From Chloroflexota bacterium (GTDB lineage: Bacteria; Chloroflexota; Dormibacteria; CF-121): DNA of 39,456 bases. Under the pieces are notes generated by a model. That model saw only the letters and a program-made list of their open reading frames with translations. It was not told where the DNA came from and did no database searches. Location of the stretch: the NCBI GenBank assembly GCA_005881235.1, contig VBEQ01000207.1, positions 1-39,456 on the forward strand. The letters are read 5' to 3'. The position numbers were made by a program, and so were the translations under genes. Positions 9,321-37,314 of the stretch are shown piece by piece (position 1 is the first letter of the stretch; each line of letters opens with the position of its first letter).

Positions 9321-9327
9321 AAGTTCG

Positions 9328-10215
9328 TTGCGCGCGCGCGTCCGGCCGCTGCTGCCGATGCTCGTCCTCACGCTGGCCACCGCCGTGCCCGCGTCGGCGA
9401 GCCAGGCCGATGATTACACGAACGCGATTCATCGGGCGCTGACGCTAGTCCAGTTCGCGGAGCGCGGCGACACCCCCTCGATTGGCCAGGCGCTCCAGGT
9501 ACTCGCCACTGCGCCGGGACCCAGCCAGCCGGAAATTCTACGCGACCTGGGCACTGACCCGCCCGCCCTCACCGACGCCGACCAACGGCTGCAGGCGTTG
9601 TATGGCGCGCTCCAGGCACGGGTCGATACCCCCGATCCGGAGCGCGCGCGGCAGCAGCTCAATAACGTCTTATCGATGGCACGCTATGCTGGCTTGACAT
9701 CCGGGCCATCGATCGTGGACCGCATCGTGGACGCGATCACGAACGCGCTAGGTCGCTTCTTCCGCTGGCTCGGTGTCACTAACCTCCATCTGGGTATCCC
9801 GCCCCTGGTCTGGCTGGGACTCGCCGCGCTGTTCATCCTCGGCATCATCCTCTGGCCGATGCGCGGCATGCTTAGCCGCGGAGGGCGGGAGGCCGTGCCG
9901 AGAGTGGCACCCGGGGCGGCCCGCGCCTTCACAGATTTCTTCGCCGATGCGGATCGGTACGCCGCCGCGGGCGACTATGTCGCGGCCATCCGAGCGCTTG
10001 CTGGCGGAGTCACCGGCAGAATTAGCGGTGAGCGGGTGTGGGACCGCAGTCCGCTAACGGTACGCGAGCTTTTTCAACGCACCAAAGATTCCGAATCGCT
10101 TCGGCCGCTCTTACGCTCGTTCGAAGAGGCCAGCTATGGTCGTCGGCCACCAGACCAGACGACATTTGAACAAGCACTCGAGGCCGCTCGCCCATACCGG
10201 AGGCCGACGGTGTGA
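9328..10215 (+). CDS. DUF4129 domain-containing protein (signal peptide, one TM helix)
   Basis: 295 aa. TTG start gives a signal-like MRARVRPLLPMLVLTLATAVPASA. The C-terminal ..AAGDYVAAIRAL..RSPLTVRELF......SFEEASYGRRPP.. is typical of DUF4129. Confidence 0.75.
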   Translation: MRARVRPLLPMLVLTLATAVPASASQADDYTNAIHRALTLVQFAERGDTPSIGQALQVLATAPGPSQPEILRDLGTDPPALTDADQRLQALYGALQARVDTPDPERARQQLNNVLSMARYAGLTSGPSIVDRIVDAITNALGRFFRWLGVTNLHLGIPPLVWLGLAALFILGIILWPMRGMLSRGGREAVPRVAPGAARAFTDFFADADRYAAAGDYVAAIRALAGGVTGRISGERVWDRSPLTVRELFQRTKDSESLRPLLRSFEEASYGRRPPDQTTFEQALEAARPYRRPTV

Positions 10216-11347
10216 AGCGCGGCAGCTGGTTTGGACTGGGAGTCCTTGTGGTCACAGTCGTCATCCTGGTTATGTTTCGAGGAACCACTCGGAACGACTC
10301 GCCGGAGCACAGTTCAGCCAGCGACTCGGGGAAGGGCACGTCCGCGCTTCGACTCTATGCCGCGTCTCTCGGCCACGCCACCGGAACCGTCGAAGGCGAT
10401 TACACTCTTCCGTCGTCGCCCGCCCTGCTGTTCGTCTTCCGGCCGACGGAGGGCTTCAGCAACGCCGAGAGTCAACAGCTCGACAGCTGGCTGCGAGCGG
10501 GCAACGTGGCGGTCTACGCTACGGAGGAACGCGATCCGGAGCTCGACAACCAGTTCGGACTGCACCTGACGAGCCGTACCGTGGACGCCCCGGCGCACGC
10601 CGCGGCGCCCGTCTTCGGTGGGGTCGGCTCACTGTCCGGTTCCTCAACCGCCCTCGCCTTCAAGCCATCGCCGTCACAGGTGCCCCTCCTTCGAAACGCC
10701 GCCGGCGATGTGCTTGCCGTTCGCATGACGGTCGGCTCCGGCCAGCTGATTGCCATGACCGATCCGCTTGTGCTTTGCAATGGCTACCTGCGATTGGCCG
10801 ACAATGGCCGGTTCGCCGCTGATCTGATCGCGCTCACGCCCAACGGCGGGACCGTGTTGTTCGATGAGTTTCACCACGGGCAGATCGCCGGCAACGCGCC
10901 GACGGCGACCGCCTGGGTGCTGACCCCCTGGGGCGCGGCGCTCGCGCTGGCGGTGATCATCATCGTTGCAGGTCTCGCCTTGCGCGGCCGCGCCTTCGGT
11001 CCGCCGATTCCGCTGCGCCAGGCCGGGGATCGTTCCGGCGCGGAATACGCGGCCGCCGTGGGCAGCTTGCTTCATCGCACCGGGGCTCGCCGGGTCACGC
11101 TCGAGACCTTGCTCGCGGCGACGCGTCGCACCGTGGCGGAACGGGTTGGGCTTGGTAGCGAGACGCCAGCCGACCAGGTCCTGGAAACGATCGCACAGCG
11201 CTCGCCCGCCGCGGCCGCCGAATTAACCCGGGCTGAGGCCGAGCTTCCGTCGGCGCTGAACTCGGAAGCCGCGGTGCTGGACATGGCCCGGCGGCTGCAC
11301 GACCTGGCCTATCCACTATCGACCATCGAGCACCAGAAGGAGTCCGC

Positions 11348-11351
<4 letters not shown>
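10212..11351 (+). CDS. DUF4350 domain-containing protein
   Basis: 379 aa. The GTG start overlaps the upstream stop by 4 nt. N-terminal TM helix, then ..GTSALRLYAASLGH..LLFVFRP...ESQQLDSWLRAGN..; a second TM helix follows and the tail is helical. This layout is typical of DUF4350. Confidence 0.7.
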
Positions 11352-12295
<944 letters not shown>

Positions 12296-12304
12296 GGTTC
12301 ACGG

Positions 12305-13621
12305 GTGACGCTGGTTCCCCAACCGCGTCTGCTGATCGCCCTGCTGCTGGGGGCGGTCCTGATCCTGCTCGTGCTGGTGCATCCGGTTTTTCTCATCCTC
12401 TTTCTCGCCTACTACGCGGCGCTGCTGGGATTTGCTCTGGCCGACGGGGCGCGGCTGCCGAAAAAGTCCGGCTTCATGGCGAGCCGCGTGCTACCCCAGC
12501 CGTTTTCGCTCGGCGAAGTCCAGTCGGTCCAGGTGCTGGTCGCCCACTCCGAGGCGGCCGGCCTGCTTGCCGAAGTCGCCGACCACGTGCCCGCGGATTT
12601 GCAACCCGACCGCCGGATCCTGACGGGTACCTTCGACCGGGAAGGCCTGTTGGGCGTCGAGTACACGGTTCAGCCGCCCCATCGCGGCCGTTATCCGTTC
12701 GGCCCGGTTGACCTTCGGTGCTGGCGTCGGGGAGGCTGGCTCATCCGGCAGGTCCGCATCAAGGCCGATGAGCCAGCGGCTGTGTATCCCGACGTGCTCG
12801 CCATCAAGCGCTACGAGCTGATGTTGCGCCGCGGCATGCGGATCATGATGGGGCTCCGGCGCGCCCGTCCGCCCGGAGCGACGACCGCGTTCGCGGGATT
12901 GCGGGACTACCTGGCGGGGGATGATGTCCGCCGGATCAACTGGAAAGCCACAGCACGCCGCGACAACCCGGTGGTCATGGAGGTCGAAGCCGAGCGCGGC
13001 CAGCAGGCGATCATTGCGCTCGATTGCGGGCGGTTGATGACGGCTCCCGCTGGTTACCTCACCAAGCTGGATCACGCGGTCAACGCGGCCCTGCTCCTGG
13101 CCTGGGTGGCGCAGAGCCAGGGCGACAAGGTCGGCATGCTCACCTTCAGCGACGGCGTGCGCCGTTTCGTGGCGCCCCAACGTGGGCCCGCCCAGGTGAC
13201 CCAGCTGAACAAGGTGCTGTACGACGTCAAGGCCGAGTACACGGAACCAGATTTTTCTGAAGCCTTCGCGCAGCTGGCCTTGCGCGTCAGCCGCCGCTCG
13301 CTGGTGGTCGTCCTCACCGACGTGCTCGACCCCGAAGCATCGCGCGATCTGGTGGCCCACGCGATCCGCTTGAGCCGGCGGCACCTGGTGATGGTAGTCG
13401 CCATGTCGGATCCCGAGGTGCTGGCAGCCCGCGACGCGCCGGTCGAGCGGGTCTCGCGCGCCTACGAGTGGGCGGCGGCGGAGGAGTTGCTCGCCGCGCG
13501 CCGGGCGAGCTTTGAGCAGCTGCGGCAGGGGGGAGTGCTCGGCCTCGACGTCGAGGCTGGCCGGCTCAGCCCCTCGCTGGTCGAACGCTACCTCGAGCTG
13601 AAGGAGCGCGCGCTGCTCTAG
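12305..13621 (+). CDS. DUF58 domain-containing protein (vWA-like, MoxR partner)
   Basis: 438 aa. Two N-terminal TM helices, then ..FAGLRDYLAGDDVRRINWKATARR.. (DUF58 signature) followed by a vWA-like region. Confidence 0.88.
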   Translation: MTLVPQPRLLIALLLGAVLILLVLVHPVFLILFLAYYAALLGFALADGARLPKKSGFMASRVLPQPFSLGEVQSVQVLVAHSEAAGLLAEVADHVPADLQPDRRILTGTFDREGLLGVEYTVQPPHRGRYPFGPVDLRCWRRGGWLIRQVRIKADEPAAVYPDVLAIKRYELMLRRGMRIMMGLRRARPPGATTAFAGLRDYLAGDDVRRINWKATARRDNPVVMEVEAERGQQAIIALDCGRLMTAPAGYLTKLDHAVNAALLLAWVAQSQGDKVGMLTFSDGVRRFVAPQRGPAQVTQLNKVLYDVKAEYTEPDFSEAFAQLALRVSRRSLVVVLTDVLDPEASRDLVAHAIRLSRRHLVMVVAMSDPEVLAARDAPVERVSRAYEWAAAEELLAARRASFEQLRQGGVLGLDVEAGRLSPSLVERYLELKERALL

Positions 13622-13673
13622 CGCGTTCGAGTAACTTCCCCGACCCCTGTGCGTTGCGTTCACCGGAGCCGGT

Positions 13674-15185
13674 ATGAAAACGCTCGAACGGCATCGAATT
13701 GACGCAATCGCACGGGAGCTCGAGACCGGCGCGTACGGCCTGGCACTTGGCCTTGGCCTGGAGCCAGCATCGGCCGAACGGATCCTTTTGGAGGCGTTCG
13801 CCACCATGGCGCCGTCTGTGCCCAGGACGACCCGAATTGACCAGCTGCGCAAAGAGCTCTCCGCGCGTATTCGGAAACGTGCGCCGCAGGAATGGGTGCC
13901 CGCGACGACCGACCCAGAAGAGGCCCCAGCAGCATCGGTCAGCGAAAACCTCCACCTCCGTATCGTCGACCTCCTCGAAGAGCATCAGGCCGACGATCCG
14001 GTCGGGCGGCGACGGGCGGTGCTCGCCGGCTCCATCGGCGTCGCGCTGCTGGTAGCAGGCATTGCCTTCCTTCGGGTTCATGCCGATGCGTTGGCCGCGG
14101 CACGGCCGGCCATCAATGAGCTGAGCCCGGCGGCTGCCGCGACCGGTGTACCACTCGACGGCGACGTCAGGGTGAAGTTCGACCACCGGCCCGAGGGCAC
14201 CCCGACGCTGCGGTTGGAGCCGCCCCACGCGCTCTTGGAGTCAACGCACTGGGACGGCAACATGCTGGTGGCGGTCTACTCAGGGCTACACCTTTCCACC
14301 CGCTACCAGCTCGTTCTTCAGGCGGATTATCGGAGCCGGCTCAAAGACGTTGGTCATCTCGAAAAGCGCTGGTACGTAACCACCCGCGGCTATCCGGTGC
14401 TGTCCGCGCTCACCCCGGCGCAGGGCCAGACGCGGGCGCCACGGACTGGAAAGATCTCGATCGACTTCAGTTATCAGCCGCCGGCAACGGCGCGCCTCAT
14501 CATCACGCCCGCCGATGGAATCCTGGCGCTCGGTGATTGGAGCGGGACAGCCTACACGGCCAGCTACAGCGGACTGAAGCCGCTTACCCAGTACGAAGTC
14601 ACGCTGAGCCTCGACTACGGCGCGGCCGCCGCCGGCACGCAACGGCAGTGGTCCTTTTCGACGGAGCCCGGCTGGCCGCCAAGCGGCACAGCGGTCATCT
14701 GGTACGCGACGCAACCACCCTGGAACCCAACGGATCAGCGCTTGCTCGCGGTCGACTGGCAGGGAAACCCCGCCGGCACCATGTATCCAACCTCGACCCT
14801 GGTCCAGCAGGCGCCCGACGGGTCATCCGTGCTGACCCCGGACGGCGGCTCCATCGACGTCAACGGCGCCGTTCCCGCCGCAAGGCCCGCCTACGCGTCG
14901 ACCGCGTTCGCCGCCGATGACAGCCGGAGCGTCTGCAAAGTCGTGGAAACCGGCCCCTTCTGGCTGGAAGCCGGCCCTCTGCGCGGGCCGTCGCGCCGCG
15001 TCGTCCTTCTGGGTTCCGGAGGCGGGCGGGTCGGCTTCGACATCCTTGCCTGCAGCATGGCCAGCGACCGCGCCGTGATCGCGGATAACGGGATGGGAGG
15101 CACGGCCGCGGTCCGTGTGATCGCGCTGACGACCGGACGCCTTGTGTACCAGCGGTCGTATGGCGGAGCAGACGACAACTTTTGA
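13674..15185 (+). CDS. Membrane-anchored protein with two tandem Ig-like (SbsA/Big_5-like) domains and the start of a beta-propeller-like region; probably interrupted by a frameshift
   Basis: 503 aa. TM helix at about aa 115-133. Two similar ~90-aa units (aa ~150-238 and ~241-331), each ending in W-x-[VF]-[ST]-T. The ORF stops at a TGA immediately after a T4 run (15180-15183), while a +1 frame continues the protein. Confidence 0.6.
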   Translation: MKTLERHRIDAIARELETGAYGLALGLGLEPASAERILLEAFATMAPSVPRTTRIDQLRKELSARIRKRAPQEWVPATTDPEEAPAASVSENLHLRIVDLLEEHQADDPVGRRRAVLAGSIGVALLVAGIAFLRVHADALAAARPAINELSPAAAATGVPLDGDVRVKFDHRPEGTPTLRLEPPHALLESTHWDGNMLVAVYSGLHLSTRYQLVLQADYRSRLKDVGHLEKRWYVTTRGYPVLSALTPAQGQTRAPRTGKISIDFSYQPPATARLIITPADGILALGDWSGTAYTASYSGLKPLTQYEVTLSLDYGAAAAGTQRQWSFSTEPGWPPSGTAVIWYATQPPWNPTDQRLLAVDWQGNPAGTMYPTSTLVQQAPDGSSVLTPDGGSIDVNGAVPAARPAYASTAFAADDSRSVCKVVETGPFWLEAGPLRGPSRRVVLLGSGGGRVGFDILACSMASDRAVIADNGMGGTAAVRVIALTTGRLVYQRSYGGADDNF

Positions 15186-18035: not shown

Positions 18036-19202
18036 TCAGGCGGCCGAGATGGGTGCCATGGCACGCAGACGGGCGACCATTCCGGGCAGTCGATCGAGGA
18101 CGAGCTCGATCTCCCCTTCGGTGTTGCCCTTGCCGACCGACAGTCGCAGGCTGCCAAGGGCGCGTTCTCGCGGGTAGCCGAGCGCGAGGATGACGTGACT
18201 CGGTTCGAGCGAGCCCGAGGTGCAGGCCGATCCTGAGGAGGCGGCGAAACCGTCCATGTCGAGCTGCAGCAAAAGCGATTCTCCCTCTACGCCCTCGAAC
18301 AGGAAGCTGGCGTGGTGCGGAAGGCGGTTCACGGGGTGACCGGTGAGCTCGGCCGCAGGGATGCGGCCGAGGACGCCCGCGATCAGGCGGTCGCGCAACG
18401 CGGTGAGGTGGGTCGTGTTCTTCGCCATGTCGCGGCGCGCGATGCCGATGGCTTTCGCCAGTCCCACGATGCCGGCGACGTTCTCGGTTCCCGCGCGGCG
18501 GTTGCGTTCGTGCCCGCCTCCCAGGATTTGCGGCAGAAGCCGCACGCCGGAGCGAACCACCAGGCAGCCCGCGCCCTTGGGGCCGTGCAGCTTGTGCGCC
18601 GACATGGAGAGCAGGTCGACTCCGAGCTCATCGACGCGTGTCGCGATCTTTCCGGTGGATTGCACGGCGTCGGTATGGAAGTAGGCGCTGCTTCGCTCGC
18701 GCGTGACCGCGACCAGCTCGCGGATCGGCTCGATGGTGCCGATCTCGTTGTTCGCGTGCATGATGCTGACCAGGATCGTGTCGGGCCGGAGCGCGCGACC
18801 CAGGTCGGCGGGATCGACCAGGCCGGTACGATCGACAGGGAGCCGCGTGACTTCGAAGCCGTCCTGCTCGAGCGCGTCCGCCGAACGGAGCACCGCATCA
18901 TGCTCGATCGTGGAGGTGATCACGTGCCGTCCGCGGTCGGCGTTCCGCTGCGCGATCCCCTGGAGCGCGAAGTTGTCGCCCTCCGTTCCGCCCGACGTGA
19001 AGACGATCTCCTTGGCCGCAACCCCGTAATAGTCGGCGACCTCGTCGCGCGCCTGGTCAATTGCCTGGCGCGCGCGTTGACCAAGCCCGTAGACACTGGA
19101 GGCGTTGCCGAACTCGTCGGTAAGGTACGGCATCATCGCCTGGAGCACCTCGGGATCGAGCGGCGTGGTCGCTGAATGGTCGAGGTAAACCATCGACACC
19201 AT
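18036..19202 (-). CDS. Cysteine desulfurase (NifS/IscS family, PLP-dependent)
   Basis: 388 aa with VYLDHSATTP, the SAHKLHGPKG PLP-lysine block and the SSGSACTSG active-site Cys loop. The start could also be the ATG at 19193. Confidence 0.92.
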   Translation of the reverse strand: MVSMVYLDHSATTPLDPEVLQAMMPYLTDEFGNASSVYGLGQRARQAIDQARDEVADYYGVAAKEIVFTSGGTEGDNFALQGIAQRNADRGRHVITSTIEHDAVLRSADALEQDGFEVTRLPVDRTGLVDPADLGRALRPDTILVSIMHANNEIGTIEPIRELVAVTRERSSAYFHTDAVQSTGKIATRVDELGVDLLSMSAHKLHGPKGAGCLVVRSGVRLLPQILGGGHERNRRAGTENVAGIVGLAKAIGIARRDMAKNTTHLTALRDRLIAGVLGRIPAAELTGHPVNRLPHHASFLFEGVEGESLLLQLDMDGFAASSGSACTSGSLEPSHVILALGYPRERALGSLRLSVGKGNTEGEIELVLDRLPGMVARLRAMAPISAA

Positions 19203-21221: not shown

Positions 21222-22220
21222 TTAGCTGCCGACGAGGTCCGGCCGGGTAGGGCCGTAGATGTCGACCGGCACGGCCGTGGGCTCGTGCTTCTTCGCTTCC
21301 AGCTTCTTCACCGCATCGATGGCGGCGGTCGTCGCATCGCCGACAGCCGTCGTGATCTGTCGGGTCAGCTGCGACCGAACGTCGCCGGCGGCGTAGACGC
21401 CTGGCAGGCTCGTCTGCATCGTCGAGTCGGTCACCAGGAATCCGAGCGGGTCGTGCTCGACGTGCTCTCGATGATCGAAGAACTGGACGTTCGGCTGAAA
21501 GCCGATGAAGACGAAGAGCCCGGTGACCTTCAGTGGCCGGCTCTGCCCCGTGACCACGTCTTTCAGCGTGACCTCTTTCACCTGGCCGTCCTCACCCTTG
21601 ACCTCGGTGACGGTCGTGTTGGTGATCAGCTCGACCTTAGGGTTCTTGCGTGCCGCCTCGACGAGGATGGCCTGGGCGCGAAAGTGCTCGCGGCGGTGGA
21701 CGATGTAGACCTTCTTTGCGTAGCGGGTCAGAAAGACGCCCTCCTCGAGCGCCGCGTCGCCGCCGCCGACCACGGCGACCTCTTCCTCCTTGAAGAAGGC
21801 CCCGTCACACACGGCGCATTGCGAAACGCCGCGCCCCTGGAACTCGCTCTCACCCGGGATGCCGAGCTTCTTGGGCTCCCCGCCCGCCGTCAGGATGATG
21901 TAGTTCGCCGTGTACTCCCCGTCCTCGGTCTCCACGACGTGCTGCACGCCTCGGCGGCGGATACCGGTGACCCGGACCGTCTCCAGGTCGACGCCGAACT
22001 TGACGGCCTGGTCGGCCATGCGCTGGGCCAGTTCCGGCCCGGTGATGTGATCGAACCCCGGGTAGTCCTCGATCGCCTCGGTGTTGAGCAGCTGGCCGCC
22101 CGGAGCGCCGCGCTCGAGCACCACGGTTTTGACCCGCGCTCGTCCGGCGTACAGGGCGGCGGTCAAGCCGGCCGGCCCAGCGCCGATGATGACCACGTCG
22201 TACTGGCGGTCTTTTTGCAT
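21222..22220 (-). CDS. trxB: Thioredoxin-disulfide reductase
   Basis: [15 protein letters not shown] motif, redox-active CAVCDG, second dinucleotide fold [14 protein letters not shown] chose the ATG at 22220 because the codons upstream (to 22238 or 22274) are AT-rich at position 3. The C-terminus has a tail of about 25 aa beyond the usual TrxB end. Confidence 0.9.
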
Positions 22221-22329
22221 CGCTTGCGAAGCTCCCATGTTATCTAAGCCTGATCCCAACTCCAGTATTCCCAAATTCGCCTCGCCTGAACGAGCGGGCC
22301 AGGCCGGCGCGCGTCGTAACCCTGGGCGG

Positions 22330-22337
22330 TATATAAC
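22330..22337 (+). promoter_or_regulatory. Possible -10 element (TATATAAC) upstream of the ECF sigma gene
   Basis: It is the only AT-rich octamer in the 128-nt trxB/sigma divergent spacer and ends 11 nt before the ATG at 22349. No convincing -35 was found. Confidence 0.2.
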
Positions 22338-22348
22338 TGCGGAAGTGG

Positions 22349-22912
22349 ATGCCTGAGGAGCATAGGACCGGCACAGCGGCGTTCGCTTCCTCCGGAAAGG
22401 TCGTGGCGCTGCCCCAGGCGGACCCGACCCACGGTCCGGACCATGTCACCTGGGCCTATCAGACGCATGTCACAGCCATCTACCAGTACATCTACAGCCG
22501 AGTCGGGAACCGCCCGGACGCCGAGGACCTCACCGCCCAGGTGTTCATGAAGGCGATCAGTGGCATGCGCAGCGATGTCTCGGTCCCGGAGTTGCGCAGC
22601 TGGCTCTACCGGGTGGCGCAGACGACCCTGGCCGACCACTGGCGCGAGTACTACGCCGAGGACACCGGCGAGCTCGACGACGACGTGACCCGGCCGCCCG
22701 CCCCTCGCGAGAATCCGGAGGCCGTGCTGCGGGTGGACTCTCTGCTCGCCACCCTCCCCGAGAGTTACCGGCGGGTGCTGGAGCTCCGCTTCTTGCGCGG
22801 CTACTCCGTGCGCGAAACGGCGCAGGAGCTCAACCTCAGCGAGACCAACGTCAAAGTGTTGCAGTTCCGGGCGCTCAACCGCGCCGGGCGCGACCGCGGG
22901 AGGGCGACGTGA
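22349..22912 (+). CDS. ECF-type RNA polymerase sigma-70 family factor
   Basis: 187 aa. Region 2 (..[26 protein letters not shown]..) and region 4 (..[37 protein letters not shown]..). The stop overlaps the next gene's GTG (GTGA). Confidence 0.88.
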
Positions 22913-23580
22913 ACGACGATCCCGAGCAGCTCGACAAGCACGTCGAGGACCTGCTGCAGGACCGCCGGCCGGAGCGAACCCCGCTCGCCGATGAGGCTGC
23001 GCTTCGGGCTCGCCAGACCGCCGCCATGCTCCGGGCCGCCAAGCCAGGAGCCGGTCTCCCGTCGAAAGAGTTCCTGGAGCGCATGCAGGGATCGATTCAC
23101 GAATGGGTTGACGAACGCTCGGCGCGGCCGCAGCCCGCGGTACGCCCCAGTCGCCGGTCGCTGCTGCTGACGGGGGCCGCCGGCATCGCCGCCGGGGTGG
23201 CGGCCGCCGTTGGCATCGATCGGCTTGCGACGCACCCGGCGCCGGCCGCGAACCAGCAGCTGGTCGAAAACGGGAGCTGGAAAGCGGTCAAAGCCCTATC
23301 CGAGCTGCCCGAGGCGACGCCGGTCGCGTTCCGCGCCGGGGCCATCGAGGGATTTCTGATCCGGCACGGGCAGGAAGTCAAAGGCCTCTCCGCGGTCTGC
23401 ACCCACATGGGATGCATCCTCAACTACAGCAAGTTCCGCGATCAGTTCGAGTGCCCCTGTCACGGCGCGACGTTCAAGAAGAACGGGCAGGCAACCGACC
23501 AGTACGACACACCGCTGCCGACACTGCCCTCGTTGCAAGTGCGGATCCAGCGCGGCCAGGTCGAGGTCTACACGGTCTAG
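22909..23580 (+). CDS. Membrane-anchored Rieske (2Fe-2S) domain protein with ~80-aa cytoplasmic N-terminal extension; candidate anti-sigma factor
   Basis: 223 aa. Acidic/helical N-terminus, twin-arginine motif SRRSLLL plus a hydrophobic stretch, then Rieske boxes CTHMGC and CPCHG. Confidence 0.85.
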   Translation: MNDDPEQLDKHVEDLLQDRRPERTPLADEAALRARQTAAMLRAAKPGAGLPSKEFLERMQGSIHEWVDERSARPQPAVRPSRRSLLLTGAAGIAAGVAAAVGIDRLATHPAPAANQQLVENGSWKAVKALSELPEATPVAFRAGAIEGFLIRHGQEVKGLSAVCTHMGCILNYSKFRDQFECPCHGATFKKNGQATDQYDTPLPTLPSLQVRIQRGQVEVYTV

Positions 23581-23607
23581 CCGTAACCGTCCCGCGTACC
23601 CACATCC

Positions 23608-24096
23608 ATGATTGCATCGATCACGCGTGTGGGCTGGGCGGCCGCTATGGTGGCGAGCGCCGCGCTTCTTCTCGCTGCCTGTGGCGGCACCAGTTCCGGC
23701 ACGGCGGCGACCGCCTCACCGTCGGCATCGGCTACGCCGACACCATCGCCAACAGCAGGAGCGGCGCCCGTCGTCCTGGCGCAAAACGTCGGCACGATGG
23801 GGACGATCCTCGTGGCCGCCTCAAACAACCACACGGTCTATACCTTCGACAGCGACACCCCGGGCGTCAGCAAGTGCAGCGGCGGCTGCGCGACAACCTG
23901 GCCACCACTGACGGTCCCCGCAGGGACGACGCCGACCGCCGGTCCTGGAGTGACCGGTCAATTGGGCACGATCACGCGCAGCGACGGCTCGCTCCAGGTG
24001 ACCTACAAGGGCATGCCGCTCTACTTTTTCCACAGCGACGCAAAGGCGGGCGACACCATGGGCAACTACACCGGCTGGAGCCTCGTCAAGCCTTAA
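23608..24096 (+). CDS. COG4315-type lipoprotein (secreted repeat of unknown function, PF03640-like)
   Basis: 162 aa. Lipobox LLLAAC and a Ser/Thr/Ala/Pro linker. ..TVYTFDSDTPGVSKCSGGCATTWPPL.. and ..QVTYKGMPLYFFHSDAKAGDTMG.. are the two typical repeats. Confidence 0.8.
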   Translation: MIASITRVGWAAAMVASAALLLAACGGTSSGTAATASPSASATPTPSPTAGAAPVVLAQNVGTMGTILVAASNNHTVYTFDSDTPGVSKCSGGCATTWPPLTVPAGTTPTAGPGVTGQLGTITRSDGSLQVTYKGMPLYFFHSDAKAGDTMGNYTGWSLVKP

Positions 24097-24161
24097 CAGC
24101 CGACGTCGATGATTCGGCGCCGCGTCCGGCCAGGCCCGGGTAGGCTTGTTGCTGGAAGCAA

Positions 24162-24629
24162 ATGAGTGGTACGCCGCGCGCAGTTTCGATTGACATCGGG
24201 GTGCAATGGGAAGCAGGTGCGCCGATGCCGCACCTCCTAATCGGCCTTCGTACATTTCTCTTGTTCTACGCGAGGGCGGGTGGAGAGGATCCGGCGGAGG
24301 ATCGCATTGGGTTGCTGGAGATTGTCGGCTGCGCGGCGGCTCGCTACGGTCCACCAAATGATGAAGCCCTGGAGAACCACCCCCTTTGGGGCAATGGGCT
24401 GGGCTTCTACGCCGCTCATCAGGTCGAAAACTCGTCGTGGCTGCCTGAATGGCGTGAGCTCGCACTTATTAAGGGCGCGCAGGCTTCAGCTTTGCCGCAG
24501 GAATTGCGCCACTTCATCTTTACCTTTCACGACGAAACGGTTGAGGTTCTGGCTCACGACCTTAACGCAGAAGTCTTTAGCGGGAGCATGACCGAGGCTC
24601 TTCAGGAGGCGTGTCGCCGACTGGCCTAA
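24162..24629 (+). CDS. Conserved-looking hypothetical cytoplasmic protein
   Basis: 155 aa with no TM helix or signal peptide. The segments ..GPPNDEALENHPLWGNGL..YAAHQVENSSWL.. and ..RHFIFTFHDETVEVLA.. recall an uncharacterised actinobacterial family; I cannot name it. Codon position 3 is clearly less GC-rich than in flanking genes. Confidence 0.55.
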   Translation: MSGTPRAVSIDIGVQWEAGAPMPHLLIGLRTFLLFYARAGGEDPAEDRIGLLEIVGCAAARYGPPNDEALENHPLWGNGLGFYAAHQVENSSWLPEWRELALIKGAQASALPQELRHFIFTFHDETVEVLAHDLNAEVFSGSMTEALQEACRRLA

Positions 24630-24726
24630 CCGTTGGCCGCCCTTAGCGGCTACAGATCGGCGGTCTCGGCCTGCAGCCTAGGGAGCGTTTCGGGTACGCT
24701 CGGCCCAGTCCATGGGAGGGGTGGCC

Positions 24727-27700
24727 ATGTTGGTCTGCTCGCGATGCGGCGCCGAGAACCGGCCGGGACGCAAGTTCTGTGCCCAATGCGCCGCGGGCCT
24801 GGCGATCTCGTGTCCCTCCTGCGCTGCGGCAAACCAGCCGGGCGAGAGGTTTTGCGGTGAGTGCGGCGCCCCTCTCGCTGAAGCCGTGCTCGCCGGCGAG
24901 ATCGTCATTCCGGCCACCGAGCGCCGGCTGGTTTCGGTTCTGTTCGCCGACCTGGTCGGTTTCACCGGCCTGTCGGATAGCCGGGATCCCGAAGAGGTGC
25001 GGGAACTTCTCACACGATACTTCGATACCGCACGCAAGGTCATCGCCCGCTACGGCGGGACGGTCGATAAGTTCATCGGGGATGCCGTGGTCGCTGTCTG
25101 GGGAACACCCGCGGCGCATGAAGACGACGCGGAGCGAGCGGTCCGCGCGGCCCTCGACCTGATCGACGGTGTCACCGCGTTGGGGTCGGGCAATGGTCAA
25201 CAGCCGCTCGCGCTGCGAGCGGCGATCGGGACCGGTCCGGCGGCCGTTCTGGTCGGAGCGACTGGCCAGGGGATGGTTGCCGGCGACATGGTCAACACGG
25301 CGTCGCGCCTGCAGGCGGCGGCGTCACCAGGCACGGTTGTCGTCGATGAGGCTACCTATCGAATCGCCGGCCGCGCGATTGCGTTCGAGACGGTCGGCGA
25401 CCAGAGTCTGAAAGGCAAAGCACTGGCGGTGCCGGCGTGGCGCGCGCTGCGCGTGGTGGCCGGCCGCCGCGGCTTGCTGCGAGCCGAGGGACTCGAGCCG
25501 CCCTTCGTTGGCCGCGACAGCGAACTTCGCCTTCTCAAGGAACTGTTACACGCCACACAGACGGAACGGAGGGCCCGTCTTCTCTCGATTATTGGTCAGG
25601 CCGGCATTGGCAAGTCGCGCCTTGCATGGGAGTTCCAGAAATACGTCGATGGCCTGGTCAGCGACGTGTACTGGCATCAGGGCCGGTCGCCCGCATACGG
25701 CGACGGGATCACCTTCTGGGCACTAGGCGAGATGCTTCGGCAGCGGTGCGGCATAGCCGAAACCGATGACGCCTCGACCAGTCGTGAGCGCCTTGCCGAA
25801 ACGCTCGACCGGTTCGTGACCGATGAGGGTGAACGTGCCTGGCTGGCGCCAGCACTTAGCGCCCTGCTCGGTCTCGAGCCGGCGCCGCAGGGCTCGCGCG
25901 AGGAATTGCTTGCCGCGTGGAGAACCTTCTTCGAACGCATCAGTGACCGCGGGCCCACTGTCATGGTTTTCGAGGAGCTGCATTGGGCCGACCAGGGCCT
26001 CCTCGACTTCATCGAGTACCTCCTGGAATGGAGCCGGGCTCACCCCATCCTCATCGTCACCCTGGCTCGACGGGAGCTCCTCGAACGGCGACCGACCTGG
26101 GGAGCCGGCCAGCGCAACTTCACTGCCCTGCAACTCGAGCCTCTTTCGGCGGATTCCATGACCAGGATTCTCAACGGCCTCGCCGGCGGCCTGCCTGATG
26201 CGGTTGCCCGCCAGATCCTCGAGCGGGCTGAAGGCATTCCGCTGTACGCCGTCGAGATCGTCCGGATGTTGCTTGGCGATGGTCGCCTGACCCAGGGCCA
26301 GGGCTCCTATCGCCTCACCGCCGATGTCTCTCGTCTGGAAGTTCCAGCCACGCTGCAGTCGTTGATCGCGGCCCGGATTGACGGTCTTTCGAAAGACGAG
26401 CGCGCGGTGATTCAGCATGCCTCCGTGCTCGGTCAGTCTTTCACGGTCGATGGCCTGCTGGCGCTGACCGGCATTGGTCCTGAGCAGCTCGATGCCGTGC
26501 TCCACATGCTGGTCAAAAAGGAACTCCTTGCGCTCGACTCCAACCCGCGTTCCCCTGAACGCGGCCAGTACAAGTTCGTGCAGGGCCTGCTCCGACAGGT
26601 CGCCCACGAGACGTTGAGCAAACGCGAGCGGCGGGAACGACACCTGGCGGTAGCGCATTACCTCGAGGGACTTGCTGACGATGAACTCTCCGGTGTGGTC
26701 GCCAGCCATTACCTGGATGCTTTCCGCGCAGCGGTTGCTGGTGCCGAGGCGGATGCTCTTGCGGCCCATGCTGGGGAGGCTCTCCGGGCCGCGGCCGATC
26801 GTGCCGCCGCCCTTCACTCACATGATCAGGCGTTCACCTACCTGGAGCAGGCTCTGACGGTGACTACCGATGAGTCAGAGCGCGCTGCCATCCTGGAACG
26901 GGCTGCGGTATCGGCGCGGGCGATCGGGCGGGATTCAGTTGCCGAAGACTACCTCGGGCGCGCAATGGCTCGTTACCAAGAAGTCGGCGACCTCGAGAGT
27001 GTCGCGCGGGCGGCTACGGCGCTCGCAAACCTGCTGACGACTGCAGGAAACAGCGAGCAGGCCATTGCGCTCCTGCAATCGGTGCGTCTTCCGGTCGAAG
27101 AATCCAACGCCGCCGTTGTCGCGCTCAATGCTGAACTGGCACGGGCCTTCATGATCCATTTCGACAGCGCGCTGGCCGCGGAATACGCTGACCGCGCGTT
27201 GATGGCGGCCCATCAACCTGACTTGATGCCGGTCATCGTTGAGGCCCTCATCACCAAGGGCTGTGCGCTCGGGCAAATGGGACACCGCTATCGGGAAGCG
27301 CAGGCTGTGCTGGCCGGGGCGATGTGGCTGGCGCAGCGTCAGGCACTGGTGCTATCCGAAATCCGCGCCCGCATCAATCTCGCGGTTTTCCTCAGCACCG
27401 ATGATCCGCGCCTCGCGTTAGATCTCACGCGTACGGCCCTGGACCTTGCCCGGCGGTTGGGGCACCGGAGCCTTGCGAACAGGCTTGGTTCGGATGCTGC
27501 CTGGTACGCCTTTCGCACCGGTGATTGGGATTGGGCCTCGCGTCTGCTCGACGAACTCGAAGAGGCTGAGAACGCGATCGCCACCTACGAGCAACTCCTG
27601 AATCGTGCAATCTACCGGGCGAACCGCGGCGATCGGTCGGCTGCTGAAGGTCTCCTGGACAGCGCCGAGGAACGCATACGGGGATCGACCAATCCTGAGG

Positions 27701-28209
27701 GCGCCGAGGGCCTAACCACGGTCCGCGTCTTTGTCGCCGTCGCGACCGCTCAAATGGAGAAGGCCTATGAGATGGCAATGAGATCAGCACCAACGATGCA
27801 AAATCGCGCCTTCCGAGGACAGACCCTCGATGAGGCCTGCCACGCGGCGCTCGCGTTGAGAGATGCAACACGGACGCACGCTGCGCTGCGAGAACTCGAT
27901 GCGCTGGGCAACCCGGGCACATGGTTGCAGACGAGCAAGCAAGCCCACCGTGCCGGGCTGGCGCTGCTGGAGGGGCGGATTGACGAGGGTCTGGCGGGCT
28001 ACCGCATCGCACTGGCCGGCTGGCGAGAGCTCGGCGTGACCCGCGACCTCGGTCTCTGCCTGCTCGACCTCGCTGCATTGGTCGGCACCGATCACCCCGA
28101 CGGTCGGGCCGCGGCCGAGGAGGCGCGCCAGATCTTCACCCGCCTCAATGCCGCGCCGGCCCTCGAGCGTCTCGAGGCCCTATCGGGCCAGGTTGCGGTC
28201 GCACGCTGA
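24727..28209 (+). CDS. Double zinc-ribbon / class III adenylate-guanylate cyclase / AAA (AAA_16, STAND-like) ATPase / TPR-like repeat protein
   Basis: The ATG at 24727 is preceded by GGGAGGGG; ORF track start 24712 is the alternative. CSRCGAEN..CAQCA..CPSCAAAN..CGECG zinc ribbons, VSVLFADLVGFT cyclase core, GQAGIGKSRL Walker A, then a long helical repeat C-terminus. Confidence 0.9.
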   Translation: MLVCSRCGAENRPGRKFCAQCAAGLAISCPSCAAANQPGERFCGECGAPLAEAVLAGEIVIPATERRLVSVLFADLVGFTGLSDSRDPEEVRELLTRYFDTARKVIARYGGTVDKFIGDAVVAVWGTPAAHEDDAERAVRAALDLIDGVTALGSGNGQQPLALRAAIGTGPAAVLVGATGQGMVAGDMVNTASRLQAAASPGTVVVDEATYRIAGRAIAFETVGDQSLKGKALAVPAWRALRVVAGRRGLLRAEGLEPPFVGRDSELRLLKELLHATQTERRARLLSIIGQAGIGKSRLAWEFQKYVDGLVSDVYWHQGRSPAYGDGITFWALGEMLRQRCGIAETDDASTSRERLAETLDRFVTDEGERAWLAPALSALLGLEPAPQGSREELLAAWRTFFERISDRGPTVMVFEELHWADQGLLDFIEYLLEWSRAHPILIVTLARRELLERRPTWGAGQRNFTALQLEPLSADSMTRILNGLAGGLPDAVARQILERAEGIPLYAVEIVRMLLGDGRLTQGQGSYRLTADVSRLEVPATLQSLIAARIDGLSKDERAVIQHASVLGQSFTVDGLLALTGIGPEQLDAVLHMLVKKELLALDSNPRSPERGQYKFVQGLLRQVAHETLSKRERRERHLAVAHYLEGLADDELSGVVASHYLDAFRAAVAGAEADALAAHAGEALRAAADRAAALHSHDQAFTYLEQALTVTTDESERAAILERAAVSARAIGRDSVAEDYLGRAMARYQEVGDLESVARAATALANLLTTAGNSEQAIALLQSVRLPVEESNAAVVALNAELARAFMIHFDSALAAEYADRALMAAHQPDLMPVIVEALITKGCALGQMGHRYREAQAVLAGAMWLAQRQALVLSEIRARINLAVFLSTDDPRLALDLTRTALDLARRLGHRSLANRLGSDAAWYAFRTGDWDWASRLLDELEEAENAIATYEQLLNRAIYRANRGDRSAAEGLLDSAEERIRGSTNPEGAEGLTTVRVFVAVATAQMEKAYEMAMRSAPTMQNRAFRGQTLDEACHAALALRDATRTHAALRELDALGNPGTWLQTSKQAHRAGLALLEGRIDEGLAGYRIALAGWRELGVTRDLGLCLLDLAALVGTDHPDGRAAAEEARQIFTRLNAAPALERLEALSGQVAVAR

Positions 28210-28802
28210 TGGCTCGGATCGAATGGGTCGCGGACGACGATGCATCGGGCGAGCTCGCCGATGTCTACCGTGAGCTGAAGCGAACATCGGCGAAGGGAAA
28301 CGTCCCCGACATCCTGCGGACGATGAGCCTGCGACCCGACTTCTTGCGTGCCATCGATAAGGCGAGCCGGCTGCACTTCACCGACGGAGCACTCAGCCGA
28401 GCGGAGCACGAAATGATCGCTTCCTACGTCTCGGCGCTAAACCGCTGCCACTATTGACTCAGCAGCCATGCCTGGTTCCTGCAGTTGCAGGGGGAGCAAT
28501 ACTCGAAAGCGGCGGCGGCGCTGCGCGACGGGGACCTCGAGGCCGCCGACCTGGCGCCGAAGCACCGGCTGCTCCTGGAATTCGTCGAGACGCTAACCCG
28601 GCACGCGTACCGCATCACCGACGAGCAGGTCCAGCGGCTCCGCGAGGTCGGGTGGAGCGACGCGCAGATTGCCGAAGCCGTCTATGACGGGGCGCTTTTC
28701 AACCTTTTCGTGCGGCTTGCCGATGCTTTCGACATCCACCCCGACCCCTCGTATGATGCGGCGGGCGCACCCGGGGTCCTCGGCCGACCCGACGGGCCCT
28801 GA
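28209..28802 (+). CDS. AhpD/carboxymuconolactone decarboxylase-family peroxidase-related protein with in-frame TGA at 28455-28457 (candidate selenocysteine; otherwise a disrupted gene)
   Basis: ORFs 28209..28457 and 28485..28802 are in the same frame. Read-through gives a 197-aa protein with ..VSALNR-C-H-Y-[TGA]-L-S-S-H.. in place of the family CxxCxxxH motif. The downstream half has no in-frame ATG. The start ATG overlaps the cyclase stop (TGATG). Confidence 0.65.
28476..28493 (+). promoter_or_regulatory. Small hairpin downstream of the in-frame TGA (SECIS-like candidate)
   Basis: UU-CCUGC-[AGUU]-GCAGG-GG: five Watson-Crick pairs plus two G-U pairs. The core stem starts 20 nt after the TGA, and the 4-nt loop contains G and U. 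Confidence 0.3.
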
Positions 28803-34070: not shown

Positions 34071-35219
34071 TTAGTCGCGGCGGCTGTTATCGTCGCCGTC
34101 GTTGTCGTGCGGCAGCGCCAGCTTCCAGACGGTGCCGCCCTGGGCGCAGAGCTGTGGGATCCCCGTCGCCGGGCAGACACTGTCGGCGCTGAAGTAGAGA
34201 TTGCCATCCGGCCCCACGACGTCCATGTTGGGGAAGTTGAGCCCAGCCGCGATCACCGAGGACGTCCCCTCCTCGGTATCGAGCTTGACGATGTTGCCAG
34301 TGAACGGCTGCGGGGGTGTTGGCGTGGTCCACATGTTGACGAAGTAGACGTTCCCCTGCCCGTCGGCGGTGCAGCCGGTCACGTGCTTGAGATCCGAGTT
34401 GGCCACGAGCGTCACCGACCGGCCGTGTACGCGGTAGAGGTGGCCCGCCAGCGTGGCGACCCACAATGCGTCGTCCGTCGCCGCGATGCAGTCCGGCACC
34501 TCGTCGCTTGGGAAGGCGTTCTGCCGGAATGGGAAATAGTGGAGCACGCTGATGTGCCCACCATTGCTGACGAACTCCAGCGTGTTCGATCCGGCATCGG
34601 CAACGTAGGAACCACCGTTAGTTGCCAGGACGCCGTACGGGTTGGAGTCGTGCTCCTGGTTCGGGATGTCGGCGGTGTAGTCGAAGCCGAATGCGCCAAC
34701 GCCGGCGACCTTTCGCCAGGTGCCGTTCGACTTTACCGAAAGCAACGCGCCCGCCTCCTTCTTGGCGGCGGCGACGTCCGCCCGGCATTCAGTGTCCCCG
34801 GCGGCGCACTGGTAATTCGCGAAGGCCTGCGGGAACACGCCCAGGATGGCCATCAGGGATCCGTTACGCGCGGAAATCCCGTCCACTCCCAGGGCTTCGC
34901 CGTGGGTAGGATCGAAGAACTCGGCGGCGGAGAACAGGTGGTCGACGAGCGGAGTGTGGGTTGCAGTCGCCGTGTTAACCCACGAAATCTGTGACGTACG
35001 GCCGAAACAGATGGTCGGCACGCCGGGGATGCAGTTGTTACCCCCGTGGCCGGCCTCGGCTACCACCAGCTTGCCCTTGAAGAACTCGACCCCGCGTGGG
35101 CTGTCGAAGCCGGCGGCAACGAGCGTCGGCGCCCCGGTAGCCGCCGCGGGTGTGGGCACCAGCGCCCCCACCGCCATGAATACGACGGCGGCCAACGACA
35201 AACGGAATTTCCCTCGCAT
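34071..35219 (-). CDS. Secreted beta-propeller protein, ScyD/ScyE-like
   Basis: The ATG at 35219 is preceded by GGTGGAGGAG. Signal peptide MRGKFRLSLAAVVFMAVGALVPTPAAA, then ..LVAAGFDSPRGVEFFKGKLVVAEAGHGG.. and repeated propeller-like strands. The upstream part of ORF 34071..35312 is probably not translated. Confidence 0.62.
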   Translation of the reverse strand: MRGKFRLSLAAVVFMAVGALVPTPAAATGAPTLVAAGFDSPRGVEFFKGKLVVAEAGHGGNNCIPGVPTICFGRTSQISWVNTATATHTPLVDHLFSAAEFFDPTHGEALGVDGISARNGSLMAILGVFPQAFANYQCAAGDTECRADVAAAKKEAGALLSVKSNGTWRKVAGVGAFGFDYTADIPNQEHDSNPYGVLATNGGSYVADAGSNTLEFVSNGGHISVLHYFPFRQNAFPSDEVPDCIAATDDALWVATLAGHLYRVHGRSVTLVANSDLKHVTGCTADGQGNVYFVNMWTTPTPPQPFTGNIVKLDTEEGTSSVIAAGLNFPNMDVVGPDGNLYFSADSVCPATGIPQLCAQGGTVWKLALPHDNDGDDNSRRD

Positions 35220-35273
35220 CTCCTCCACCCTTTGCCCCCGCTTAACCCGTCTTAACGCAATAGCCCATTGGGG

Positions 35274-35310
35274 CCAGCCGACATGGTACGGCTGGACGCT
35301 GAGTCCAGTC
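35274..35310. promoter_or_regulatory. Two mutually exclusive hairpins in the ScyD-like/dxs divergent spacer
   Basis: Hairpin A is CCAGCCG(35274-80)/CGGCTGG(35289-95) with an 8-nt loop. Hairpin B is CTGGAC(35292-97)/GTCCAG(35303-08) with a 5-nt loop, extendable by G-U and G-C pairs. They share 35292-35295. Confidence 0.3.
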
Positions 35311-35394
35311 AAGGGGCAGGGAAACCAAATCTCGGTTATCGCCGTTATCTGTCGAGCAGGGGCTTGGCGGCTCTTCGCTAGACTCGAATCGAAT

Positions 35395-37314
35395 ATGGAT
35401 CAGGTTTCCAGCACACCAGTTCTCGACCGGATCATGAGTCCGGCCGATCTTCGCTCTCTGAGCGATGCGGAGTTGCGCGCCCTGGCCGATGAAATCCGCC
35501 AGTTCCTGGTTGCGACCGTCTCCAAGACCGGTGGCCACCTCGGGCCCAACCTCGGCGTCGTCGAGCTGACCCTGGCGCTCCATCGGGTGTTCGAGAGCCC
35601 CAGGGATCGCATCCTCTGGGACACCGGCCACCAGGCGTACGTCCACAAGCTGCTGACGCGTCCCCGCGAGGGATTTGCGAGGCTGCGCAAGCTGGGCGGC
35701 ATGAGCGGCTATCCGAACCGCACCGAAAGCCAGCACGATTTCATTGAGAACAGCCATGCGTCGACCGGTCTCAGTTATGCCTCCGGGATGGCTGAGGCGA
35801 TGCGGCGGCAGGGCGATCCCGGACACGTGGTCGTGGTCGTTGGCGATGGCGCCTTGACGGGCGGGATGGCCTACGAGGCACTCAACAACATCGGTCATCG
35901 CAAGACGCCCGTGATCATCGTCGTCAACGACAACGGCCGCTCCTACGCTCCCACGGTCGGCGGCCTGGCGCAACACCTGGCGCAGCAGCTCACCGTCCTC
36001 AACCCGTCGTATCACCGGACGAAGAAGCGCGTTGATCGAATTCTCCGGGCGGTTCCTGCCGGCGACAAGGCGATCGAAGCCGTACGCCGGATCAAGGAAG
36101 GTCTCAAGGAACTCGTCTCGCCGCGCACCTTCTTCGAGTACCTCGGCATCAAATATTCCGGCCCGATCGACGGCCACAACATCGAGGACGTCGAGCGCAC
36201 GCTGCGCCAGGTCAGCCGCCTCGGTGGACCGTCGGTGGTGCACGTGATCACGACTAAAGGTCGTGGCTATGGGCCGGCCGAGGCCGACGAGATCGACCAT
36301 CTTCACGGCGTCAGTGCCTTCGACGTGCTGACGGCGAAACCTTTGAGCCGCAAGGTGTCGTATACGGATGTCTTCGGCGAGGCACTGCTGCGCGAGGCCG
36401 AGCAAGAGCCGCGACTGGTTGCAATCACCGCCGCCATGGGGAGCAGCGCCGGGTTGGGCCCCTTCGCTGAACGCTTTCCCGACCGGTTCTACGACGTCGG
36501 AATCGCGGAGCAGCACGCCGTCACATTTGCGGCCGGCCTAGCCATGGCAGGCCTGCGCCCGGTCGTCGTCATCTATTCGACCTTCCTGCAGCGCGCCCTC
36601 GACCAGGTGATGATGGATGTCTGCCTGCACAAGCTGCCGGTAACTTTCGTGTTGGATCGGGCCGGGATCACGGGGGATGATGGCCCTTCGCATCATGGAA
36701 TCTTCGACCTGACGTTCCTCCGCGCCATGCCGGGGCTGACCCTGGCGGCGGCGAGCGATCCGCAGGAGCTGCGCGATCTGCTTCATACGGCCATCGCGCG
36801 CGACGGCGCCGGCCCCTTTGCGATCCGTTTTCCCAAGGGCGCGGCCGGCGACAGCGAGGCGCAACCGGCTCGGATCCTCCCGGTCGGCGAGTGGGAGGTA
36901 CTGCGCCAGGGCAGCGCCGCGTTGCTGCTGGCGACCGGCAAGCTCGTCCCGGCCGCCCTCGAAGCGGCCACCATGCTCGACAAGGAGGGCCTGCCGCTGA
37001 CGGTGGTCAACGGTCGCTTCATCAAGCCGCTGGATCCGCGGCTCGAGAGCTGGGCGCGGCGCCACCCGGCGGTGCTGACGCTCGAGGACAACGTGGTCAC
37101 GGGCGGCTTCGGATCGGCGGTCGCCGAAGCGCTGGCGCCGCTCGGCATCCCGGTCACGGTGATGGCGGTCCCCGACAGCTTCATCGAACAGGGCGGACAG
37201 GCGGAGCTGCTCAAGCAGCTCGGGCTCGACGCACCAGGGGTCGCCTCGCGAGTCCGCCGCCTCGTGGGCGACAATGAATCGATGCCCGAGCCGGCAACGC
37301 AACCCGGTAGCTAG
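35395..37314 (+). CDS. dxs: 1-deoxy-D-xylulose-5-phosphate synthase
   Basis: Translation from the ATG at 35395 (MDQVSSTPVLDRIMSPADLRSL..GGHLGPNLGVVELTLALH..GDGALTGGMAYEALN..) matches full-length Dxs (639 aa). The part of ORF 34846..37314 upstream of 35395 overlaps the opposite-strand gene. Confidence 0.95.
   Translation: MDQVSSTPVLDRIMSPADLRSLSDAELRALADEIRQFLVATVSKTGGHLGPNLGVVELTLALHRVFESPRDRILWDTGHQAYVHKLLTRPREGFARLRKLGGMSGYPNRTESQHDFIENSHASTGLSYASGMAEAMRRQGDPGHVVVVVGDGALTGGMAYEALNNIGHRKTPVIIVVNDNGRSYAPTVGGLAQHLAQQLTVLNPSYHRTKKRVDRILRAVPAGDKAIEAVRRIKEGLKELVSPRTFFEYLGIKYSGPIDGHNIEDVERTLRQVSRLGGPSVVHVITTKGRGYGPAEADEIDHLHGVSAFDVLTAKPLSRKVSYTDVFGEALLREAEQEPRLVAITAAMGSSAGLGPFAERFPDRFYDVGIAEQHAVTFAAGLAMAGLRPVVVIYSTFLQRALDQVMMDVCLHKLPVTFVLDRAGITGDDGPSHHGIFDLTFLRAMPGLTLAAASDPQELRDLLHTAIARDGAGPFAIRFPKGAAGDSEAQPARILPVGEWEVLRQGSAALLLATGKLVPAALEAATMLDKEGLPLTVVNGRFIKPLDPRLESWARRHPAVLTLEDNVVTGGFGSAVAEALAPLGIPVTVMAVPDSFIEQGGQAELLKQLGLDAPGVASRVRRLVGDNESMPEPATQPGS

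Follow-up and report, generated by a model that had tools for sequence, protein, structure and literature searches.

The question raised by this locus is whether a TGA codon (28455-28457) lying inside the reading frame of a gene for an AhpD-like protein ends translation or is read as selenocysteine (Sec). The gene is on the forward strand of contig VBEQ01000207.1 of the Chloroflexota bacterium assembly GCA_005881235.1, and the stretch that we analyzed, hereafter the window, comprises positions 1 to 39,456 of this contig (39,456 nucleotides). The original prediction, made from the letters of the window, described two open reading frames (ORFs) that share one frame and are parted by this TGA and nine sense codons, and proposed that together they form one selenoprotein gene; the coordinates came out the same when they were read again. 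The frame opens at ATG 28209, is broken only by the internal TGA and contains no further stop or frameshift. Downstream of this TGA come the nine sense codons and then TTG 28485, from which the frame stays open to its final TGA, so that read-through gives a product of 197 sense positions with the predicted Sec at position 83. On the evidence set out below, which is comparative, we consider it very probable that the UGA is decoded as Sec (coordinates in Table 1).

The read-through product was scored against family models with a Cys written at the TGA position (U83 as C). It reached 104.8 bits with TIGR01926 (NCBIfam, peroxidase-related enzyme; cut-off 81.8) in a match that spans residues 3-180 and profile positions 2-177 of 178, it matched the Pfam CMD domain and it passed the core-domain model TIGR00778 (40 bits, cut-off 27.8). 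The canonical AhpD model TIGR00777 (Mycobacterium tuberculosis type) gave 19.6 bits, well under its cut-off of 191.95. Full-length homology was found to the single-chain proteins of PDB entries 3C1L, 2OYO, 6K40 and 2PRR (E = 1e-16 to 1e-27), all of which carry N-x-C-x-Y-C-x-x-x-H at the matching place. These data indicate with high confidence that the gene product is an AhpD-like (TIGR01926/COG2128, carboxymuconolactone-decarboxylase fold) thiol/selenol oxidoreductase of 197 residues. The original prediction had placed the TGA at the second Cys of the C-x-x-C-x-x-x-H motif and the alignments agree, since the codon falls on the invariant second Cys of the full-length Cys homologs and of the solved structures. 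This column (83) and that of His87 are invariant in the protein alignment, and column 83 is the only invariant Cys column. Several Cys-form homologs have Thr or Tyr instead of the first motif Cys, the T-x-x-C forms without it being P0005, P0014, P0017, L036, L038, L120 and L121. Every TGA form retains it (C-x-x-U), and the resolving Cys may be dispensable only in the Cys enzymes.

The codon was compared across 119 related loci, that is the window and its relatives including a few duplicate contigs, most of them soil metagenome contigs. A scan of species-representative genomes supplied 29 loci and a scan of metagenomes 80 more, and all were picked by similarity to a TGA-bearing query. Within this set the aligned codon is TGA in 112 loci, TGC or TGT in 7, and TAA or TAG in none, a recurrence of TGA well above chance. 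The TGA loci span at least five phyla (Dormibacterota, Chloroflexota, Actinomycetota, Planctomycetota and Chthonomonadales). TGA-bearing metagenome-assembled genomes (MAGs) labelled Candidatus Dormiibacterota or "Chloroflexi CF_" are 86-93% identical to the window at the amino-acid level, and the labels of the others are Chloroflexota, Thermomicrobiales, Ktedonobacterales, Acidimicrobiales/Actinomycetota, Planctomycetota and Chthonomonadales. A protein-database search returned about 27 full-length Cys homologs together with more than 90 "proteins" of 108-113 residues that correspond to the C-terminal half only and start just past the position of the stop. In each of the contigs fetched for these short proteins an ORF of 82-83 residues lies directly upstream in the same frame, and the two ORFs are parted by a single stop within C-H-Y-*-L.

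The sequence downstream of the TGA has evolved as coding sequence. Where it could be estimated, the ratio of nonsynonymous to synonymous substitution rates (dN/dS) was 0.08-0.45 on the 3' side and 0.02-0.27 in the 5' half, values that are broadly similar and indicate that the 3' side is under purifying selection. The nine codons between the TGA and TTG 28485 vary synonymously while L-S-S-H is kept, the invariant catalytic His included, and therefore they are translated in this frame. Two objections foreseen by the original prediction, decay of the orthologs beyond the stop and a TGA that does not align with the motif Cys, found no echo in these comparisons, and the 3' half that it had judged to be family-like is conserved and lies within the full-length TIGR01926 match.

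A short hairpin follows the TGA within the coding sequence. Its stem pairs CCTGC (28478-82) with GCAGG (28487-91) around the loop AGTT and is extended by U.G pairs at 28477/28492 and 28476/28493, the inner of which is conserved in the orthologs. The window contains a single copy of the 14-nt core, where 0.01 would be expected. We compared the hairpin with the bSECISearch consensus for the bacterial selenocysteine insertion sequence (SECIS) as quoted in PMC13188914 (Fig. 2). The loop has 4 nt (consensus 3-9) and the upper stem five Watson-Crick pairs plus the conserved U.G (4-16 bp); the G expected at loop position 1 or 2, with G or U as the usual next base, is at position 2 with a U at position 3; 25 nt (28458-28482), or 20 nt in L031, separate the UGA from the loop (16-37); and the free energy of the 18-nt hairpin is -8.8 kcal/mol (-7.5 or lower). 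The U-A variant of the hairpin in L012 reaches only -5.9 kcal/mol on a minimal 17-mer. The loop AGTT is fixed in 20 of 20 sampled hairpin variants and in 111 of the 112 TGA loci, the loop of L031 being GUU. Rfam searches of the whole window (gathering threshold) and of 28380-28580 (E <= 10) returned no family matching the element. What had been described as a hairpin loosely resembling a SECIS thus agrees with all four published criteria, and it is also constrained at the RNA level.

This constraint is seen at the synonymous sites. The 14 nt CCTGCAGTTGCAGG, placed 20 nt past the TGA, are identical in 107 of the 112 TGA loci. Codon entropies were calculated on the 111 TGA loci with complete flanks, which give 103 distinct sequences over an 86-codon region. 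The codons +7 to +11 past the TGA (TTC CTG CAG TTG CAG) have synonymous entropies of 0, 0.28, 0, 0 and 0.24 bits; at other conserved Leu codons of the same alignment 4-6 different codons are in use and the entropy is 1.3-2.0 bits. The sole change tolerated replaces CTG by TTG and, along with it, CAG by CAA, which swaps a C-G for a U-A pair in the stem (L012, L013 and L083). The most divergent TGA ortholog, from Chthonomonadales (L031), has a distinct hairpin, GCCUCCGC-GUU-GCGGGGGC, 20 nt past its TGA and again with G-U in the loop. Constraint that is strong in the TGA genes is relaxed in the Cys homologs, where L-Q-L-Q is written with other codons (TTA CAG CTG CAA in L035, CTC CAG CTA CAA in L038). 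The Cys forms closest to the window protein (L034 and L119) retain the hairpin, apparently as a fossil. These comparisons support the prediction that the hairpin is a bacterial SECIS element, to which SelB would bind. In a TGA ortholog from an Ardenticatenaceae MAG (L015, 3268-3285) a further change of CAA to CTA (Gln to Leu) breaks one stem pair, and the predicted fold is instead a 7-bp stem around a loop of 10 nt; an assembly error, a tolerated variant or a gene in decay could each account for this mismatch.

Several observations weigh against Sec decoding or limit what the hairpin can say for it. The folding energy of the hairpin is ordinary when compared with shuffled sequences (z = -0.5; the sequence is 66% GC), and because this is not significant we dropped thermodynamics as evidence; the significance of the hairpin rests on the comparison between loci. 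Whether the outer U.G pair can form is set by the wobble position of a Gly codon, and in 15 of the 20 sampled sequences it does not form, so that of the hairpin first proposed (28476-28493, with two G-U pairs) the location and the inner pair stand and the outer pair does not. Covariation is thin, with one compensatory pair in one clade, probably a single evolutionary event, and a formal covariation count has low power since the stem is almost invariant. Codons for L-Q-L-Q and L-E-L-E are inherently self-complementary, and a hairpin forms at this place in some Cys homologs too, hence the presence of a hairpin is by itself not diagnostic. Three L-E-L-E Cys homologs (L036 at 5268-5285, L121 and L120) form the hairpin CCTCGAGCTCGAGG (-7.8 kcal/mol) in the same register as window 28476-28493, because the Leu codons CUC and CUG are reverse complements of the Glu codon GAG and the Gln codon CAG; this suggests a way in which the codons of the peptide could themselves have given rise to the SECIS. 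Given these caveats, the decisive signal is the freezing of synonymous sites that accompanies the TGA. As to the decoding machinery, neither the 39-kb window nor the ortholog flanks that were fetched yielded selA, selB, selD or tRNA-Sec: ARAGORN detected no tRNA-Sec in the window and 22 ortholog loci, and 29 ORFs of the window, scanned with Pfam and NCBIfam, included no SelA, SelB or SelD. When the window was scanned for further in-frame TGAs flanked on both sides by coding-like sequence, many false candidates driven by GC content came up, and none had a redox motif. In the literature examined, the AhpD-like selenoprotein family was defined by computational prediction, and our search turned up no support for it from 75Se labelling or mass spectrometry.

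If the established bacterial Sec pathway operates here, SelB-GTP carrying Sec-tRNA(Sec) would bind the mRNA hairpin CCUGC-AGUU-GCAGG, with its G-U in the loop, and, once the UGA is in the A site of the ribosome, would deliver Sec in competition with release factor 2. A UGA followed by C is a weak termination context. At the real stop, a UGA followed by U with no hairpin after it, termination would be normal. Sec83, in place of the invariant second Cys, would be the attacking nucleophile and would be joined to Cys80 in a selenenylsulfide, close to His87. The protein probably serves to reduce a hydroperoxide or a disulfide in defence against oxidative stress. The sequences themselves show the layout of the gene, its family, the match of the UGA to the motif Cys, the conservation of TGA, the purifying selection beyond it and the RNA-level constraint on the hairpin; SelB binding, the actual insertion of selenium and the nature of the substrate are what we infer.

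The alternative that survives best is a read-through without Sec, in which the UGA is decoded by a near-cognate tRNA-Trp or tRNA-Cys, or termination is leaky and stimulated by the hairpin, leaving Cys or Trp at position 83. The weak UGA-C terminator, a conserved hairpin that could in principle act as a stimulator and the lack of Sec machinery in the window and fetched flanks speak for it. We nevertheless regard it as improbable. The codon takes the place of the catalytic Cys in a redox motif, and the family is already catalogued as CxxU selenoproteins, the hairpin fits the SelB-type model in its spacing and in the G-U of its small apical loop, and although one change from TGA to TGC or TGT would provide Cys efficiently, TGA has been kept in 112 of the 119 loci.

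A split gene, with an N-terminal product of 82 residues and a C-terminal one of about 105 residues re-initiated at TTG 28485, is what public gene callers in effect propose when they cut the orthologs into ORFs of 82-83 and 108-113 residues, and this TTG is conserved. The original prediction had argued that the 3' half is no independent gene, as it contains no in-frame ATG and no ribosome-binding site; both points hold, yet TTG 28485 serves ORF finders as a start. The starts chosen by gene callers vary among orthologs (the products begin MHTWYLQ, MWFLQ or MQGEQ), no ribosome-binding site precedes the TTG, and the nine codons ahead of it, which keep their amino acids, the catalytic His among them, while varying synonymously, are translated in this frame. 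In addition the homologous solved structures are single chains over both halves, and splitting would part Cys80 from His87. We consider this model very unlikely. A pseudogene, or an error of assembly or sequencing that turned TGC or TGT into TGA, is more unlikely still. From one sequence alone such a single-base change (TGC to TGA) could not be excluded, but the TGA recurs in 112 loci from many independent assemblies with 103 distinct sequences, one TGA contig is 99.9% identical to the window, the frame has no further lesion and dN/dS downstream is well below 1; the many independent assemblies also speak against the read error considered with the original prediction. The conservation of the TGA, the purifying selection beyond it and the conserved nine codons thus lead us to exclude pseudogene, sequencing error and split gene alike. 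Global recoding of TGA as a sense codon (as in genetic codes 4 or 25), for which nothing speaks beyond the in-frame TGA itself, has a negligible probability and is excluded because TGA ends many well-supported genes of the window, as the original prediction had pointed out, among them the murE-like gene (3009-4505), the cyclase gene (24712-28209) and the AhpD-like gene itself at 28800.

With Sec decoding as the preferred interpretation of the UGA, the distribution of the two forms bears on the history of the gene. In a rough neighbour-joining tree TGA forms stand at the deep nodes, the Cys forms L034 and L035 are nested among TGA forms and there is one Cys subclade, a pattern that fits repeated replacement of Sec by Cys but is suggestive only. 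A broader scenario, possible but on balance doubtful, is that Sec is ancestral and nearly fixed in a soil AhpD-like clade of at least five phyla, that the gene with its embedded SECIS spread as a horizontal-transfer cassette and that the SECIS arose from the self-complementary codons of L-Q-L-Q (CUG and CAG are reverse complements). If true, this would place active Sec decoding in Candidatus Dormibacterota, of which we found no published mention; our literature search returned no paper mentioning both Dormibacter* and selenocysteine. The main value of the locus lies in annotation. Public MAG and metagenome records cut the AhpD-like gene into two short ORFs, and because of this redox capacity and selenium use are under-counted in abundant soil lineages such as Dormibacterota and Chloroflexota. 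The locus also offers a clean case of dual coding, with a predicted SelB-binding hairpin inside an L-Q-L-Q peptide whose synonymous sites are frozen across phyla, and of apparent Sec-to-Cys reversions that left a fossil hairpin behind. General knowledge of selenoproteins is unchanged by it.

Table 1. Coordinates of the predicted selenoprotein gene and its elements in the window.
Feature	Position	Strand	Details
Complete AhpD-like (TIGR01926) selenoprotein coding sequence, predicted	28209..28802	+	197 residues, Sec83; final stop TGA 28800-28802, next base T
Redox motif C80-H-Y-U83-L-S-S-H87	28446..28469	+	TGC CAC TAT TGA CTC AGC AGC CAT; preceded by LNR; Cys80 codon 28446-48, His87 codon 28467-69; motif in all 112 TGA loci
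UGA read as selenocysteine, predicted	28455..28457	+	next base C, likewise in 109/112 TGA loci
Bacterial SECIS hairpin, predicted	28477..28492	+	conserved U.G + CCUGC/GCAGG, loop AGUU 28483-28486; loop begins 25 nt past the UGA
TGATG overlap of cyclase stop and selenoprotein start	28207..28211	+	one base common to the stop of the 1165-aa cyclase/AAA_16 gene and the ATG

In the window the AhpD-like gene is probably coupled in translation, through the TGATG overlap, to the gene upstream, which encodes a protein of 1165 residues with zinc-ribbon, adenylate/guanylate-cyclase, AAA_16 and TPR-like domains. This gene (24712-28209, forward strand) belongs to a 4.6-kb segment (23585-28208) that is absent at this place from related MAGs (L005, L007, L008 and L027), in which the AhpD-like gene follows the Rieske gene at a distance of about 400 bp. 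The relatives have, in place of the overlap, a GGAGGG ribosome-binding site ahead of the AhpD-like gene; in L005 the leader GGTACGCTCGCCCCAGTCCAT...GGAGGG stands just upstream of the selenoprotein start. The same leader is found in the window at 24693-24720, now ahead of the cyclase gene. The contig that is 99.9% identical to the window (L039) has the same arrangement.

The region 21222-23580 is a redox-stress neighbourhood. It contains a thioredoxin-disulfide reductase gene on the reverse strand (TIGR01292, 372 bits, cut-off 343), divergent from a gene for an extracytoplasmic function (ECF) sigma factor (22349-22912), which is overlapped by a gene for a Rieske-domain protein (22909-23580). 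In the Dormibacterota relatives the reductase, sigma factor and Rieske genes are directly upstream of the selenoprotein gene, and it is possible that the reductase is the reductant and the sigma factor the regulator of the selenoprotein. The arrangement is not kept in more distant orthologs, and conservation of the neighbourhood beyond close relatives was rejected as the flanks differ in L001, L003 and L004. A NifS/IscS-type cysteine desulfurase gene on the reverse strand (18036-19202; TIGR03402, 514 bits, just below the cut-off of 530.75) encodes a protein that is weakly similar to SclA, a selenocysteine lyase (110 bits against 525). Selenium can be mobilised by desulfurases of this type, but we found no link between this one and the selenoprotein. 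Elsewhere in the window, the longest ORF for 1-deoxy-D-xylulose-5-phosphate synthase (dxs; 34846-37314, forward strand) has about 190 residues before the DXP_synthase_N domain and overlaps an opposite-strand ORF of 413 residues (34071-35312) for which no family matched; dxs itself probably starts near 35420. A cluster encoding a MoxR-type AAA ATPase, a DUF58/VWA protein and a Big_5-domain protein (11348-15185, forward strand), preceded by genes for DUF4350 and DUF7847 proteins (8400-11351), is unrelated to the selenoprotein finding.

The gene belongs to a selenoprotein family that has been catalogued since 2005. A survey of the Sargasso Sea introduced AhpD-like proteins (COG2128) that carry CxxU as a new family of selenoproteins, represented by 27 sequences (Zhang, Fomenko & Gladyshev 2005, PMC1088965). 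In the Global Ocean Sampling (GOS) survey, the family, named AhpD-like 1, ranked fourth in abundance, and 299 of its forms had Sec and 902 had Cys (PMC2398784). "AhpD-like protein, TIGR01926, CxxU" appears among the selenoprotein families of a review from 2026 (PMC13188914), and the family is present in BSepDB (PMC13326102). The original prediction had pointed to such proteins in bacterial surveys and left the position of Sec to be verified; it is the second Cys in all three published accounts that give the motif. The window gene is thus a member of a known family with Sec at the published position. It shares with this family the TIGR01926 score above cut-off, the CxxU motif with Sec at the second Cys, a SECIS hairpin directly downstream in the coding region and the coexistence of Cys homologs with Sec forms. 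It differs in that the published examples that we examined come from marine metagenomes whereas its own clade is found in soil Dormibacterota, Chloroflexota and other phyla, and in the share of Sec forms, with TGA in 112 of 119 loci, chosen however by similarity to a TGA query, against the 299 Sec and 902 Cys forms of GOS. DR1765 of Deinococcus radiodurans (PDB 6K40) and the structural-genomics entries Mlr4105 (3C1L), 2OYO and 2PRR are homologous over their full length and have the motif in the same place, with Cys instead of Sec at its second position. According to the summary of Zhao et al. 2020 given in PMC8945050, a DR1765 deletion mutant is sensitive to H2O2 and its complementation needs the cysteines of the CxxC motif. 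The alkylhydroperoxidase-related (seleno)protein family NF041238 (AhpD_rel_CFYUT), the "hypothetical protein 1" of the Sargasso Sea survey, has a related fold and CxxU. Membership of the window protein in it was rejected, as a score of 71 bits, far below the cut-off of 175, came from a partial match to the C-terminal half of a 357-position model, which points to a different family.

The fdhF SECIS of Escherichia coli is the reference SelB-binding element and has a four-base apical loop, GGUC, with G-U at loop positions 2-3. The window hairpin likewise lies within the coding sequence just 3' of the UGA, and its loop AGUU has G-U at the same two positions. The G-U is at +30/+31 from the U of the UGA in the window and at +23/+24 in fdhF, and the window hairpin has a shorter stem without a bulged U. 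A further difference from fdhF is that the stem sequence of the window hairpin is locked by the overlapping L-Q-L-Q peptide.

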